Shown here: positions 2,520 through 58,734 of the stretch, piece by piece
Layout of the letters: every line of letters begins with the position of its first letter
Position numbering within the stretch: position 1 is the first letter of the stretch
Sequence record: MH992122.1
From: Escherichia phage OLB35
Reading direction: 5' to 3' (one strand)
Length of the DNA stretch: 64,000 nt
Made by a program: the position numbers and the translations under genes
The notes under the pieces: generated by a model
Database searches by the model: none
Seen by the model: only the letters and a program-made list of their open reading frames with translations
What the model was told of the DNA's origin: nothing

Positions 2520-3620
2520 TTACGCTGTGAAGATTTTATCCCACATCGCAACAACTGCATCTCGGTTATACTTCTTCCATACTGCTTCAGCACGTTTAAC
2601 TCGAGCTTCGTATGTGTCAGTGAATTCTAATACAGCTTTTGTGTAAAGCGCAACTACTTCTTTCTTAGGAGTAGAGGAATCAATTTCTACACGCACAGTA
2701 TCTGGGTCGTATTCGAATGTCGCATGAGGATAATCCTTAAAAACTAACTGAATTACAGGGACACCTTTAGAGATGGCTTCAATAGAACTATTCTCTACCG
2801 TACCCGTGTCAGGACACGTATTGATAAGTGCTTTAGCTGTTTTAAGACGTTCCATGATTTCACTGTGTGGAGCATCAATAATAACAGGATACTTAGCCGG
2901 TGGTGCCCATTTACTAGGACAATAACCAATACCATTTTCGCCTAGTGCTTTAATCGCTTCAAGAGCAACATCAGTACGACGCATTTTAGTGTCATAACGT
3001 TGTGCACTAATAATCAGATCAGTCGCCGGAAGAATTTCAGGTTTCTCATTCAAACAAATAACCGGATAATCTTCAGCTTCAAACAACGGATTTGCTCGCC
3101 AATAATCATAATCAATTTTGTCAGTCAGACCTGAAGTCATATAACAATATTTGCGTTCAAATTCACGGAAGGCTTTAGTAGGAGCATAACTCTTACCACC
3201 GTTCTTATGAATTTGAATAGTCTGGTCCCAAATTTGAACAATGCCACGAGATACAGGTTCAAATGGTGTTGCCATAAAATTCTTATGAACTTTAGAAAGA
3301 CCTGCGTCTTTAATTGCCTGAACGGTTAGTTTGGTCGGTTCCATTGTAACAACGAAATCGTACTCATTAATGCCGGCTAGTTCAACAATCTTACGAGCCA
3401 TAGTATAACTCATACCTAGACTGAATTTAGTCAGATGACCAACAGGATGATGATTAACCTTCCAATCACCAAATGTGTCATTATCAAAGCCGATATAATC
3501 AATATCAGCACCGATGGACACAAGATATTTCAACACATTTAAATGTACTGCTTCAAGACCACCTTGTACACGTTCTGGGTTAAATGGGACTGCGCGAGAT
3601 GGGATAAACATAACTTTCAT
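2520..3620 (-). CDS. glycosyltransferase (GT-B/GT1-like), candidate DNA hmC glycosyl(arabinosyl)transferase
   Basis: 366-aa ORF; C-terminal ...TGTVENSSIEAISKGVPVI... resembles GT1 nucleotide-sugar binding motif; lies between rIIA.1 and 39 where T4 has gene 60/mobA. Confidence 0.55.
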   Translation of the reverse strand: MKVMFIPSRAVPFNPERVQGGLEAVHLNVLKYLVSIGADIDYIGFDNDTFGDWKVNHHPVGHLTKFSLGMSYTMARKIVELAGINEYDFVVTMEPTKLTVQAIKDAGLSKVHKNFMATPFEPVSRGIVQIWDQTIQIHKNGGKSYAPTKAFREFERKYCYMTSGLTDKIDYDYWRANPLFEAEDYPVICLNEKPEILPATDLIISAQRYDTKMRRTDVALEAIKALGENGIGYCPSKWAPPAKYPVIIDAPHSEIMERLKTAKALINTCPDTGTVENSSIEAISKGVPVIQLVFKDYPHATFEYDPDTVRVEIDSSTPKKEVVALYTKAVLEFTDTYEARVKRAEAVWKKYNRDAVVAMWDKIFTA

Positions 3621-14980: not shown

Positions 14981-15013
14981 AGAAACGAAAAAAGGAATCC
15001 CGAAGGATTCCTT
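14981..15013 (-). terminator. intrinsic terminator after soc
   Basis: hairpin aaggaatcc-cgaa-ggattcctt (14992-15013), then uuuucguuu on minus-strand RNA. Confidence 0.6.
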
Positions 15014-15020
15014 AAATTAT

Positions 15021-15257
15021 TTAACCACTTACTGGTGTAGGGGTAAACATTGCAGCGTTCTTAGTACGCCAATCTGCTGCGTCAGTCACCACAGTAGTGT
15101 AAGCAGCTTTTTCAGACGGGAAAGTCTGATAATGAGAATCTGCAATCCGATGTTCGTTTGAATAAATCTCAAACGGAACAGAAACTTCCATACCTTTAAC
15201 TTCTTTGCCTTCACCAGCAGGATGCGTAAAGGTTTTGATGTTTACATAACCACCCAT
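15021..15257 (-). CDS. soc: small outer capsid protein Soc
   Basis: 78-aa ORF MGGYVNIKTF...HYQTFPSEKAAYTTV... matches T4 Soc; late promoter TATAAATA upstream. Confidence 0.85.
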   Translation of the reverse strand: MGGYVNIKTFTHPAGEGKEVKGMEVSVPFEIYSNEHRIADSHYQTFPSEKAAYTTVVTDAADWRTKNAAMFTPTPVSG

Positions 15258-15380
15258 AATTAACTCCTTTGTTGTTTAATTACAGGTGTATTTATAACTT
15301 AATTAGTAACCATTATCCTGACGTTCAAAGTTGTGTTGGTTTTTCAAGTAGTAAAGTTTAAAGATTTCTTCAGCAGAAAG
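15238..15380. repeat. direct repeat copy A (gene 56 3' end + late promoter + first soc codons)
   Basis: about 143 bp, roughly 95% identical to 15579-15724. Confidence 0.85.
15289..15296 (-). promoter_or_regulatory. late promoter TATAAATA for soc
   Basis: plus-strand tatttata at 15289-15296, about 30 nt upstream of soc ATG. Confidence 0.6.
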
Positions 15381-15598
15381 AGGAGTATTAAATTTCCAGT
15401 GGAGTCTAGTATTATATCCATCAGAGCCGAATGCTTTATTAGCCGGTCTCCCGGCTTTTGCCATGCATAAAAATCAAGTTTCATTTGCAACCCAATCAAC
15501 CATATGTAGATGGTCTGATAATTGACTAACATGCTGAAGCTGATTAGACAGGAGTTTACAAATAAGCTCACTGTTATCATGTTTACATAACCACCCAA
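15344..15598 (-). other. chimeric ORF starting with duplicated soc start (MGGYVN) and reading into the inter-repeat insert
   Basis: 84-aa ORF driven by the duplicated late promoter/RBS; coding status uncertain. Confidence 0.3.
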
Positions 15599-15724
15599 AT
15601 AATCGTAACTCCTTGTTGTTTAATTACAGGTGTATTTATAACTTAATTAGTAACCATTATCCTGACGTTCAAAGTTGTGTTGGTTTTTCAAGTAGTAAAG
15701 TTTAAAGATTTCTTCAGCAGAAAG
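15579..15724. repeat. direct repeat copy B (contains the genuine gene 56 3' end)
   Basis: second copy; carries tatttata at 15633-15640 and an MGGYVN start at 15596-15598. Confidence 0.85.
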
Positions 15725-16168
15725 ACCAAGACCTTGGAACATATTTAGAACGAAATGCAGAATATCAATCATTTCAAATTTAATTTCAAGCTGGTCTTCA
15801 GGAGACAGTTCATCGATACGACGATTTCGATATTCAGCGTGTTGTGCTTTCCATGGCTTCCATACACTGCTAGCGGCTTTTTCACCATTGCTCATACCAC
15901 CAAGTGAAGTCAGCAGTTCACGGAATTCATCATCAATATAATCTTTCTGATTACGCAGCCAATCAACAACATCACCAGCAGTAGCCAATTCATCAGGATG
16001 TTTGTTATGTTCAGGCTTGTCATTTGCCAGACGAACCTGTAAAGATTTCTGCATATCAAGCATTACCTGCAGTGGGTCTTTATCTTCGTGAATCAGAGCA
16101 TTAAAATAAGCTTCTTCTGCTTTATCAACACCAGAAATAAGTTGTGAACATTCATTAAAGTGCGCCAT
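15647..16168 (-). CDS. 56: dCTP pyrophosphatase gp56
   Basis: ORF 15647-16183 trimmed to ATG at 16166-16168 (MAHFNEC...), matches T4 gp56 MazG-like dCTPase. Confidence 0.88.
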   Translation of the reverse strand: MAHFNECSQLISGVDKAEEAYFNALIHEDKDPLQVMLDMQKSLQVRLANDKPEHNKHPDELATAGDVVDWLRNQKDYIDDEFRELLTSLGGMSNGEKAASSVWKPWKAQHAEYRNRRIDELSPEDQLEIKFEMIDILHFVLNMFQGLGLSAEEIFKLYYLKNQHNFERQDNGY

Positions 16169-16256
16169 TATTTTTCCTTTCAATTCAGTATAAGAGAGTT
16201 AATTCTAACATTAATTTTATAAAGCGTAATAAATAATAGGTAACTAAGGAGATATT

Positions 16257-16454
16257 ATGTTTAAACTTCCATCGTTAATCAACGCTATTAAAGGCAATAA
16301 AAAGAAAACTGCTATCGCCGCAATAGTTGTAGGTGGCATTATTTCATGGAACTTCGGGATTGCACCATTGTTAGTTGCCCATGGTATTATAGTTCCTTCT
16401 GTTCCATTGGATACTGTAGTTGATTTGGCCTTTGCTATTATAGGACTTGTTTAA
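16257..16454 (+). CDS. small hydrophobic membrane protein (plus strand)
   Basis: 65-aa ORF; strong SD taAGGAGa 4 nt upstream of ATG 16257; AATAAATA late-promoter-like box at 16231-16238. Confidence 0.4.
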   Translation: MFKLPSLINAIKGNKKKTAIAAIVVGGIISWNFGIAPLLVAHGIIVPSVPLDTVVDLAFAIIGLV

Positions 16455-17473
16455 ATCTTCGAATAACGAGATAATCTCATTTTAGCATGCAACCCACTTG
16501 AAATATTCTGTTTCATATATTCTAAAATTTCTTGTGGTGTTGCATTTTCTTTCATTACCATATCATTCACATCCTTTGAACTCCATGGAGCTCGGTCCCA
16601 GAACATAACACGTTCGCCTGCATCTACTAATCGCTTCATACGAGCTATAGTATCCGGATGCCTAGGTTCATTATCCATCACCCATACCCGACGTTCTTTA
16701 AATGGTACCACATCTAAATCTATTGAGCCGCCTGTAATAGCGATTGCATTGGGTATGAATAAACTATCAATAGGGCCTTCCATTACCCAGACGTCTCCTT
16801 CCTTAACACGTTCAACACCATAAATTTTTGTTGCAGACTCAAACGCTTTAATAGTGATATATTTCTGAGGAGCATCTTTGCGAAGTGCACGTCCTTGAAA
16901 TGACTCAGCCTTCCCGTCTTTATTAAAAATAGGAATCACTAAACGCGGTTCTGGAATCTCTTTCTTATACGTGCCTGGTTGAATCTTGTTGACCAATTTA
17001 GGCCATTCTAATGTGAACCATAATCTGTTCCACGATTCTTTAGGAATACACCGAGACTTAACATATTTCACAATAGGATGCTCTTCAGGCAGTTTGTCTA
17101 TGCGAGAACAAGACGGCAAAGAATTTATAGTCTTTTTCTCCGGTTCTGGTTTATGTTCAGGAACCTTTTCAATCTTTGGTTCCATTCTAGCTTTTTCTTT
17201 ACGAACTTCCATTAGATATTCACGATAAAGCTCTTCGTCATACTCTTTTAAGTATCCGGAAATTGTATTATGATATTGACAGTTATAGCAATGCACATTA
17301 CCTGGAGTACCGCCATAATACCATCCGCGAGCTTTCATTGCATCTGTCTGAGAGTCGCCACAAACTGGACATCGAAATGTTAATTTAAATGTGCTTGAAT
17401 TATTGATTTGTCTAAAACGAGGTAGGTGAGAAAACGCACGATAAGCAAATTCATTATCTATCCATTCAGCCAT
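16451..17473 (-). CDS. 61: DNA primase gp61
   Basis: 340-aa ORF ...WIDNEFAYRAF...CPVCGDS... matches T4 gp61 zinc-ribbon/TOPRIM primase. Confidence 0.95.
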   Translation of the reverse strand: MAEWIDNEFAYRAFSHLPRFRQINNSSTFKLTFRCPVCGDSQTDAMKARGWYYGGTPGNVHCYNCQYHNTISGYLKEYDEELYREYLMEVRKEKARMEPKIEKVPEHKPEPEKKTINSLPSCSRIDKLPEEHPIVKYVKSRCIPKESWNRLWFTLEWPKLVNKIQPGTYKKEIPEPRLVIPIFNKDGKAESFQGRALRKDAPQKYITIKAFESATKIYGVERVKEGDVWVMEGPIDSLFIPNAIAITGGSIDLDVVPFKERRVWVMDNEPRHPDTIARMKRLVDAGERVMFWDRAPWSSKDVNDMVMKENATPQEILEYMKQNISSGLHAKMRLSRYSKI

Positions 17474-17512
17474 AGTATTCTCCAGAGGCCTTAAATTAAT
17501 AAGGCCATCATA

Positions 17513-18007
17513 TCACAACTTATTGATATTTACTTTAATTCGCTTTCTTTTCTTGGAAGGAATTTGTTCTGGACCTTTATTTACGACTGCACCTGTAGTT
17601 GTTCCTGATGCAATAGCTTGAGGGCTGCCACCTGAATCACCAGCCACCATATCCTCAAATAAAGGGAGTTCTTTAAATATTTCTTTCTGCTGTTCTTCTG
17701 TAATGTTATAGCGGGATGCTACAGCACTCCAGGCAGACATCATTGAGGCCATTCCATTAAGACCTGGAACAGTACTCATCATTCGCTTCATTGAACGAAC
17801 TGAAGCATGAAAAGGTGTATAAGCCGCTTTCTCTTCGGGAGTAGAAGGACGTTTAAGAACACTTCCACGTTCGTCGATGATTTTGGCTTCGTACGCTTTC
17901 CATTCGGTAAAAGGTTTTTGCATTAGTCGAATAAACTTATATGCGTAAACAGAATCTATTGCAGTGTTAATAATACCCATAGGTACCTCCTGAGTATATT
18001 TAATCAA
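17513..18007 (-). CDS. hypothetical protein
   Basis: 164-aa ORF in 61.x region. Confidence 0.5.
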   Translation of the reverse strand: MIKYTQEVPMGIINTAIDSVYAYKFIRLMQKPFTEWKAYEAKIIDERGSVLKRPSTPEEKAAYTPFHASVRSMKRMMSTVPGLNGMASMMSAWSAVASRYNITEEQQKEIFKELPLFEDMVAGDSGGSPQAIASGTTTGAVVNKGPEQIPSKKRKRIKVNINKL

Positions 18008-18197
18008 TTACAAAGATTGCTTTGTCACCGTTCGCATCTGTGACTTCATATGTAGTGTCTTCATAGTGTGGAATATTCCAAATTACACCATCATTAGCTT
18101 TTACGCTAATATGGCATTGGTGTTTTGAAACAACTTCATAATCTTCAAAACTTGTAAAAACACTAATTTTAGAACCAGTGCAAATTGCAGTAGTCAT
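18000..18197 (-). CDS. hypothetical small protein
   Basis: 65-aa ORF, coupled overlaps. Confidence 0.4.
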   Translation of the reverse strand: MTTAICTGSKISVFTSFEDYEVVSKHQCHISVKANDGVIWNIPHYEDTTYEVTDANGDKAIFVID

Positions 18198-18198
18198 T

Positions 18199-18858
18199 TT
18201 AACCTCGATTCATAAATGCATTAAATATTTGGTCATCAACAGAAATTTCTAATTCGACTTCAATTGTTTCAGCCTTTTCTTCAGGTGGTAATTCGTATCC
18301 ACACACTACAATTTTTTCATCGATATCAAAATATACAGAAGCAATACGATTAATGTTACTTTCAGTTAAGTCTAAATCAACATCAACATCTTTTTGACCT
18401 ACACTTAAAGGATAACTAATACGGGTTATTTTATTATCTTTAACAAAGAGTCCACCAACATACTCTGTACTACGTTTGAAGTTTACACGTTTCCGAATTG
18501 AAAGATATGATACATCTTTACCGTGAGCTCGGCTCATAGGACATAATGAATAGCTAGAATAAGAGATGTCAAATCCTACACCTTCAATATGAGCCAACGT
18601 GTCATGAGTAAACCAATTATAATCATATGCCAAATCCATTATATTGTAATATGTGAAAGGCACAGGATTAACGTCATATGTTGTACCTTTAAAATCTGCC
18701 CAGGCAACGATTTCGTTATCTTTAACAATTACAAAAATTACACCAATATGGTATCCATTATTATTTTCATTCGGCGTTATATTATAACATTGTGCATTAG
18801 GAAATTTACCATATTTAAATGGCGCGTTTTTGTGCATGTAATAAATCATATTATTCAC
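18199..18858 (-). CDS. hypothetical protein
   Basis: 219-aa ORF in 61.x region. Confidence 0.5.
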   Translation of the reverse strand: MNNMIYYMHKNAPFKYGKFPNAQCYNITPNENNNGYHIGVIFVIVKDNEIVAWADFKGTTYDVNPVPFTYYNIMDLAYDYNWFTHDTLAHIEGVGFDISYSSYSLCPMSRAHGKDVSYLSIRKRVNFKRSTEYVGGLFVKDNKITRISYPLSVGQKDVDVDLDLTESNINRIASVYFDIDEKIVVCGYELPPEEKAETIEVELEISVDDQIFNAFMNRG

Positions 18859-40172: not shown

Positions 40173-40233
40173 AAGTCTAACGCCGTTATCGCGATGCAAA
40201 TTAAAACCACAGAAATAAATAAAAAAGGAAGCA

Positions 40234-58206: not shown

Positions 58207-58509
58207 TTAGATAGATGTAGACTCTAATTTTATTTTCATGAACTCGGCAAATTGTTTGGCAGTTTTTATGCCTTGTTCATGACATTCAAATGCATCATCA
58301 CAGGGGCTATTTTTGTAATGCTTTGCCATATACTTATAGAATTTTTCAGAGTTCTCGACATTTTGAATTTCAAACAAAGTATATACGTTTTTAATCCCTG
58401 ATTCCATAAAGTTATCAAAGTATGGGTCAACATATGCAGTACCAACGATAGGAGTTGTTGCTGCAAAAAACCCAAGCATCGCCATGACAGCTATCGCTCT
58501 TAAGGCCAT
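58207..58509 (-). CDS. rI: lysis-inhibition protein RI (antiholin)
   Basis: 100 aa with signal-anchor; ...VDPYFDNFMESGIKNVYTLFE...KNSPCDDAFEC... matches T4 RI. Confidence 0.8.
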   Translation of the reverse strand: MALRAIAVMAMLGFFAATTPIVGTAYVDPYFDNFMESGIKNVYTLFEIQNVENSEKFYKYMAKHYKNSPCDDAFECHEQGIKTAKQFAEFMKIKLESTSI

Positions 58510-58521
58510 ATAGGCCTCCTG

Positions 58522-58734
58522 TTAATTTTGGCCAGTATTTATTTTTCGCCTTTGGACGGCCTTAACATCTGCGAGGTATTTTTCCAGCTTTCGCTTGCGT
58601 GTATAATCAGCTTTAGAACCAGTTTGACGGATATCCTCGTTTAAATGAGAAATAGAATGTCCTAATTCTCTTCGGATTTCGTCCAATTGGGTTACAGTAA
58701 GATTACGAAGTTGTCTTTCGTTTAATTGCTGCAT
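58522..58734 (-). CDS. hypothetical protein
   Basis: 70-aa ORF, ATG at 58732-58734 with AAGAGG RBS; late promoter upstream. Confidence 0.5.

Follow-up and report, generated by a model that had tools for sequence, protein, structure and literature searches.

The open reading frame of 65 codons on the plus strand at positions 16257..16454 of the window, the 64,000-nucleotide stretch of Escherichia phage OLB35 DNA analyzed here, is in our reading the gene for a late-expressed inner-membrane protein that spans the membrane a single time. Taken as a whole, this chain of claims is given a probability of about 0.7 on the sequence evidence presented below; the late timing, the start of transcription, the topology and the location in the membrane are parts of it that we infer from signals in the DNA and the protein. 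The gene as such is not new, as it is already listed as "hypothetical" in RB69 and in hundreds of T-even-type genomes. What is added here is the orthologue in T4, the reach of the family across genera within the Tevenvirinae, a tandem paralogue, the core of the late promoter, and a corrected membrane topology.

The window is 97-99% identical to the genomes of Mosigviruses, the RB69-like T-even phages (for example CAU_ECP01, PECP20, and ATK47), and in an ORF scan of the 64 kb the minus-strand ORFs of at least 70 aa covered 90% of the sequence. A previous reading of the DNA, made without database searches and in the following called the sequence-only reading, had singled out the small frame between genes 56 and 61 as the only plausible gene on the plus strand, had assigned it a strong Shine-Dalgarno (SD) sequence with a spacing of 4 nt, and had noticed a box resembling a late promoter ahead of it. 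Our scan recovered the frame exactly, and both signals are in place, the promoter box ending 21 nt before the ATG. Among the 7 plus-strand ORFs of at least 40 aa that lie mostly outside the minus-strand ORFs of at least 70 aa, it is also the sole frame led by an SD sequence. The features of the region are the following:

15647..16168, minus strand: gene 56, dCTPase, flanking ORF (PF08761)
16202..16225, minus strand: MotA-type middle promoter for gene 56, GCTTTA-N12-TAGAAT, assigned from the sequence
16228..16235, plus strand: putative T4-type late promoter box AATAAATA, consensus TATAAATA at -13..-6, assigned by a sequence criterion
16241..16256, plus strand: inferred 16-nt 5' leader containing the SD sequence, with a predicted start near 16241 from the -13..-6 rule
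16246-16252, plus strand: SD sequence AAGGAGA, 4 nt (tatt) ahead of the ATG
16257..16454, plus strand: intact CDS of 65 aa with ATG start and TAA stop, from the sequence and the ORF list
16451..16454: convergent overlap, read from the sequence, of the TAA stop of the ORF (16452-16454, plus strand) with the stop of gene 61 (16451-16453, minus strand)
16451..17473, minus strand: gene 61, primase, flanking ORF (PF08275)

The minus-strand MotA-type promoter and the plus-strand late box stand back to back and diverge with 2 nt between them (16202-16235), and the middle promoter of gene 56 matches one annotated at the equivalent position in SA79RD. At the other end of the ORF the stop-stop overlap with gene 61 is found in T4, T2, RB69, and the remote-clade locus L023 as well, and the called genes of another remote-clade locus (L022) likewise overlap by 4 nt. 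Neither strand showed a terminator-like site in a scan of positions 15000-18500, and a plus-strand transcript would hence enter gene 61 unterminated, in the antisense direction.

The product of the ORF is RB69ORF029w (NP_861719), annotated at 16061..16258 in RB69, from which it differs by 1 amino acid, and it is 100% identical to the proteins of APCEc01 and SA79RD, whose genes have the same position and orientation. It matches PHROG 2024 (function unknown) with E = 1.9e-27 over residues 1-65 of the 65-position profile. By tblastn, the protein was matched in 692 phage records, with a coverage of at least 80% in 685, and intact copies are present in about 690 records. The label "hypothetical protein" is carried by the gene in at least 16 Mosigviruses, with SA79RD among the annotated relatives. 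The three main clades, those of the Mosigvirus, Tequatrovirus (T4, T2, and T6 among them), and Gaprivervirus phages, have proteins of equal length and 46-56% identity. In the window, T4, T2, RB69, SA79RD, and SP18 alike, the ORF is placed between the dCTPase gene (56, or dam) and the primase gene (61) and runs against all its neighbours.

When 1.84 billion representative proteins were searched exhaustively with an HMM profile, no more than eight clusters were recovered. Four of the eight are remote, with identities of 22-32% and E values from 5e-5 to 4e-4, and have their counterparts in T4-like phages that infect Citrobacter, Klebsiella, Salmonella, Enterobacter, Edwardsiella, and others. In all four remote cases the gene is antisense to each of its neighbours and convergent with the next gene downstream. 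The dCTPase and primase genes flank three of them; the fourth comes from a contig of 745 bp that ends short of where gene 56 would be seen. The conservation in related phages that the sequence-only reading had named as a check is extensive, from the intact copies in about 690 records to remote homologues across genera.

Some variation in the arrangement was also seen. In locus L024, and likewise in L025 and L026, a gene of 124 aa (3204-3578 on the minus strand of L024) separates the small ORF from the primase gene, and it is the stop of this gene, not that of gene 61, which overlaps the stop of the small ORF. The Gapriverviruses (TH41, VR-type) carry a divergent tandem paralogue of 66 aa directly downstream on the same strand (L007, 2207-2407, plus strand), present also in L010 and L016 and featuring a basic cluster, a TM segment, and the motifs LWN and PIAATQGVHLPQVTMEH. 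This second copy is closer to the homologues of the Klebsiella/Citrobacter type than the first copy is, and in SP18 (L006, 2215-2310) it is reduced to its C-terminal 31 codons. A GIY-YIG homing endonuclease was considered for the downstream plus-strand ORF of the Gapriverviruses and was rejected when the translation turned out to be the tandem paralogue of the small protein.

In T4 the orthologue is intact and has 66 codons, at 17738..17938 on the plus strand of NC_000866 (3239-3439 in locus L004). It is preceded by AAGGAGG and GATAAATA, and its stop overlaps with gene 61. NC_000866 shows a gap of 309 bp (17626-17934) between dam and 61 in which no feature is annotated, and in a collection of 15 billion proteins the exact T4 protein occurs in raw assemblies only, where it has no NCBI accession. 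Nolan et al. (2006) placed RB69ORF029w among the novel ORFs of RB69 (PMC1524935, supplementary file 2); since T4 has an orthologue, this status does not hold.

The evidence that the ORF encodes a protein comes from a codon-level comparison of 17 distinct sequences. Within the clades the counts of synonymous and nonsynonymous changes were 13/4, 9/3, 8/1, and 11/9, against a chance expectation of approximately 0.25 for the synonymous fraction (binomial p = 1e-5, 2e-4, 1e-4, and 7e-3, respectively), and dN/dS was between 0.04 and 0.39. Between the clades the synonymous sites are saturated (pS 0.55-0.8) with pN at about 0.32, and the second codon positions show the fewest changes. To this comes the retention of frame, start, SD sequence, and length at 22-55% identity across many genera. 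One might still suspect that the frame arose by chance in an AT-rich spacer and is annotated by pipelines out of habit, since the annotators of the T4 RefSeq record did not call it and it has no known domain, but the retained frame and signals, the strong excess of synonymous changes, and the keeping of a tandem paralogue together exclude this at the level of sequence comparison. We thus consider the ORF to be almost certainly a real protein-coding gene. Disrupted copies are found in the T4-like strain T4_ev240 (LR597657), where a 1-nt deletion in an A-run breaks the frame (AATAAGAAACG to AATAAAAACG; L027, 1410-1465) and only the C-terminal 41 codons are called in the annotation, and in a few metagenomic frameshift variants (P0068 and P0073). 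The T4_ev240 frameshift may be a homopolymer sequencing error, or it may reflect a gene loss that is tolerated in the laboratory.

For the expression of the gene the direction of transcription is informative. Early and middle transcription in T4 is all of one polarity, opposite to that of the ORF, and late transcripts are of either polarity (PMC2988020). A scan upstream of the ORF showed no sigma70-like promoter on the plus strand. The T4 late promoter occupies -13..-6 relative to the start (PMC1524935), and the box is AATAAATA in the window and GATAAATA in T4. Promoters of this gp55-dependent type have their box close to the gene, roughly one helical turn ahead of the start, and can do without a -35 element. 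The ATAAATA core stands 14-33 nt ahead of the ATG in each of seven sequence contexts, which are the Mosigviruses, T4 with dam upstream, T2-type phages with a different upstream gene, T4-like phages with gene 56 directly upstream, the Gapriverviruses, three remote clades taken as one, and the fourth remote clade (L024), in which the core is 33 nt upstream. Of the homologous loci, 26 extend far enough upstream to be assessed, and in all 26 the core is accompanied by a GGAG-containing SD sequence, with the composite spacing ATAAATA-N(2-28)-GGAG-N(3-9)-ATG. The bases around the core diverge between the contexts, and position -13 is A, G, or C and never the consensus T, so the promoter may be weak. 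An A at -13 is found in 9 of 50 listed T4 late promoters and is the commonest natural variant (PMC2988020), and this base is poorly conserved among the late promoters of relatives (PMC1524935).

The heptamer ATAAATA is depleted in the window, with 9 occurrences in 64 kb (at 15289, 15633, 16229, 40215, 47939, 58536, 58759, 62700, and 63945; 3 of them on the plus strand) against 30 +/- 6 in shuffled sequences. This depletion of about three-fold fits with selection against stray late promoters in the early region. The composite signal ATAAATA-N(2-28)-GGAG-N(3-9)-ATG occurs 3 times in 64 kb where 0.22 are expected, and in the window it fronts only soc, the antiholin gene rI, and the 65-aa ORF. Neither of the two other plus-strand sites, at 40215 and 62700, is followed by an SD-led ORF on that strand. 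Three of the minus-strand sites are equal to RB69 late promoters predicted in 2006 (Pl:15279, 47792, and 58753), and the box of the ORF is absent from the list of 31 sites obtained in that HMM scan of RB69 (PMC1524935). Collectively, the comparative support for the predicted box as a late promoter of the ORF is good.

The two other genes with the composite signal deserve a few remarks. Between soc and gene 56 there is a perfect direct repeat of 113 bp (15269-15381 and 15613-15725, 344 bp apart) in which the 3' end of gene 56 (…AEEIFKLYYLKNQHNFERQDNGY) and the late-promoter box of soc are both duplicated, the two copies of ATAAATA being at 15289-15295 and 15633-15639 on the minus strand; a soc-like start, MGGYVN, recurs at 15598. 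T4 has the homing endonuclease gene segF at the equivalent 56/soc junction, and the repeat may accordingly be a scar of recombination or homing. The antiholin gene rI (58207-58509, minus strand; PF24205, E = 3e-24) adjoins the thymidine kinase gene and has its composite signal at 58507-58542.

Regarding the protein, the sequence-only reading had predicted two TM segments, of which only the one at residues ~18-42 would span the membrane. Scored on the Hessa scale in five family members, this segment has a summed dG of -2.9 to +2.8 kcal/mol, and the best 19-residue TM window begins at residue 16-22 in each of the five; the Mosigvirus segment is marginally hydrophobic at +2.4 kcal/mol. The C-terminal hydrophobic stretch was rejected as a second TM segment, because with 12-13 residues, two conserved acidic residues, and a score of +5 to +13 kcal/mol it is too short and too polar. 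A single TM segment at 21-41 and no signal peptide is also the published prediction for RB69ORF029w (PMC1524935, supplementary file 2). We also considered a SAR-like releasable TM segment, given that the Mosigvirus segment is rich in Gly and Ala and marginal, and rejected it since the Gaprivervirus segment is strongly hydrophobic and the property is hence not conserved.

The charges are distributed very unevenly in the T4/RB69/SP18 subfamily: all K and R residues are N-terminal to the TM segment, with none after residue 17, and all D and E residues are C-terminal to it. In two of the remote homologues one K or R is present in the tail. The N-terminus forms an amphipathic helix with five Lys and the basic cluster KGNKKK. 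The TM helix carries the invariant residues W31 and P37 and the near-invariant N32, and it ends just ahead of the invariant G43. In the tail (43-65) P47 and an acidic residue at 52 are near-invariant, and V55-D56 is invariant within subfamily A. The location of W31, N32, P37, G43, P47, and acidic residue 52 suggests that the outer half of the TM helix and the periplasmic tail make up the functional face. An AF2 model based on an alignment of 20 sequences has a pLDDT of 84 and shows helices at 3-11, 15-41, and 51-62. The likely topology, judged from the protein sequences, is a single span with the N-terminus inside and the C-terminus outside, leaving the conserved 23-aa Pro/acidic tail in the periplasm. 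No Pfam domain was matched, NCBIfam gave sub-threshold noise only, and no PDB entry was matched by the sequence profile. Foldseek searches of BFVD and PDB returned no structural neighbour beyond the family, where it should be kept in mind that a two- or three-helix model of 65 aa discriminates poorly.

Of the small late membrane protein gene proposed in the sequence-only reading, the gene itself, the membrane association, and the late signal are thus supported by the comparative data, and the two-TM topology is not. It is the combination of purifying selection, synteny throughout the Tevenvirinae, conservation of the late core with the SD sequence, and a plus strand in which no sigma70-like promoter was seen that speaks for a late small membrane protein. 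In the course of an infection we would expect the ORF to be silent in the early and middle phases, when transcription would be confined to the minus strand (gene 61 and the middle promoter of gene 56). After the onset of replication, RNA polymerase with gp55, gp33, and gp45 would start about 6 nt downstream of AATAAATA, and the short leader with its strong SD sequence would allow translation of the 65-aa protein. The five N-terminal Lys would stay in the cytoplasm and the helix at ~18-42 would cross the inner membrane, thereby placing the 23-residue tail with the pattern HG-x3-P-x4-D/E-x2-VD at the periplasmic face for a presumed contact with another component of the envelope. The transcript, having met no terminator, would run on antisense into the primase gene.

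As to what the protein would do, a late task in the envelope, such as tuning the timing of lysis or lysis inhibition, is preferred by us over a structural or replication role, although this is a guess that we hold tentatively and that may well be wrong. The lysis timing and the exclusion put forward in the sequence-only reading are likewise guesses. It is based on the late timing, the membrane location, the short periplasmic motif, and on soc and rI being the only other genes with the late signal in the early block. The likeness to rI is that both genes are small, are embedded in the early region, and have ATAAATA and an SD sequence ahead of them, but the ORF is on the opposite strand. With T and RI the product shares a predicted N-terminal membrane segment and a periplasmic C-terminus, but T and RI have globular periplasmic domains and the periplasmic part of the ORF product is only ~23 residues. 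It has no sequence similarity to the holin T, the antiholin RI (PF24205), or RIII. Being a putative late membrane protein is the only thing that ties it to the holin/antiholin system. Searches of the literature on RB69ORF029w, on T4 Ribo-seq and small proteins, and on late antisense transcription yielded no expression or functional data.

Several other roles have to be weighed against such a late envelope function. The arrangement of the locus invites the thought that the late promoter is mainly there to drive an antisense transcript into gene 61 and beyond, shutting off early and middle mRNA, with the ORF being secondary. Early regions of T4 are known to be transcribed in antisense late in infection, the gene 32 region being an example (as cited in PMC3014915 and PMC2988020), and at several sites in T4 the two strands are read at different times (PMC2988020). 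The present case is similar in that a late promoter points against the early direction and read-through into gene 61 is expected, there being no terminator before gene 61 and the stops overlapping convergently, an overlap common to T4, T2, RB69, and two remote clades. Here the transcript, in distinction to those cases, carries a conserved and selected ORF with a strong SD sequence. The selection acts at the amino-acid level (dN/dS as given above), and the ORF survives separation from gene 61 by the Gaprivervirus paralogue, by a 108-bp spacer in SP18, and by the 124-aa gene in L024. There is no relevant Rfam match, and the folding z-score is +0.26 against shuffled sequences. Because the selection is on the protein and insertions before gene 61 are tolerated, the antisense effect cannot be the main selected function, and we consider a primary role at the RNA level unlikely; a side-effect of this kind on gene 61 is plausible and would be compatible with a function of the protein.

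Among roles for the protein itself, a superinfection-exclusion or immunity function of the Imm or Sp kind would suit a small predicted inner-membrane protein with a conserved motif at the periplasmic face, in particular as sp belongs to the same gene block in the closely related Mosigviruses RB69 and SA79RD, at a distance of ~2.5 kb, and as Imm and Sp are likewise small envelope proteins of T-even phages that are encoded in this early block and are non-essential in the laboratory. Imm and Sp are, however, early minus-strand genes. The ORF is read from the plus strand, where its sole promoter signal is late, which would be too late for the start of an infection; moreover, the family profile has no Pfam match and gave a best non-self E value of 0.18 against the window ORFs of at least 30 aa. 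We regard such a function as quite improbable, and the same holds for a membrane-side helper of late morphogenesis acting in the prohead start (gp20/gp40) or in baseplate or tail-fibre steps. T4 prohead assembly does begin at the inner membrane, the ORF has its late promoter signal in common with the nearby capsid gene soc, and it is conserved along with gene 40 in all contexts examined. Yet the product resembles no morphogenetic protein in sequence or structure, its tail is predicted to be periplasmic and hence away from the assembling heads, and the possible T4_ev240 frameshift speaks against an essential role. Very little speaks for a holin- or pinholin-like lysis effector beyond the small size, the at least one TM segment (~18-42), the late promoter signal, and a "Holin" label in UniRef/BFVD on the homologue P0067 (A0A482MZV5) of phage OE5505, which seems to be an annotation by a pipeline or a submitter that lacks support. 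The product has a single TM segment and a hydrophobic C-terminus (...DLAFAIIGLV) instead of a charged or hydrophilic one, no holin family in Pfam, NCBIfam, or PHROGs is matched, and the neighbours are the dCTPase and primase genes with no endolysin, spanin, or holin gene adjacent. In T4 the holin is the product of gene t and t-null phages fail to lyse, so a second autonomous holin is not expected, and of the roles weighed here this appears the least probable. The reading that we retain is therefore that of a late single-pass inner-membrane protein, with the tuning of lysis as a tentative suggestion for its task.

It follows from these results that T4, although among the most closely annotated genomes, has a RefSeq record lacking an ORF that is intact there and that is under purifying selection in T4-like relatives, with place and orientation conserved from T4 and RB69 to the relatives infecting Klebsiella, Citrobacter, Salmonella, and Enterobacter. 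To our knowledge the classical T4 deletion series never covered the region of the ORF, and its position between the essential gene 56 and the replication genes 61 and 41 would explain why it was missed. Even if no phenotype is found, the T4 reference annotation and the listing of RB69ORF029w as a novel ORF in 2006 need correction. The interest of the ORF would grow with a late phenotype in lysis or at the envelope. There is a small chance that T4 and essentially all enterobacterial T-even-type phages have in this overlooked late gene, which is read against the early direction, an unrecognised player in a late envelope process, for instance an extra component of the T/RI/RIII lysis-inhibition circuit or a different means of controlling the envelope as infection ends. 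If the protein is indeed late and acts in the membrane, it would provide a well-defined handle for asking whether a component is missing from the known programme of T-even lysis and lysis inhibition, or from another late step at the envelope.
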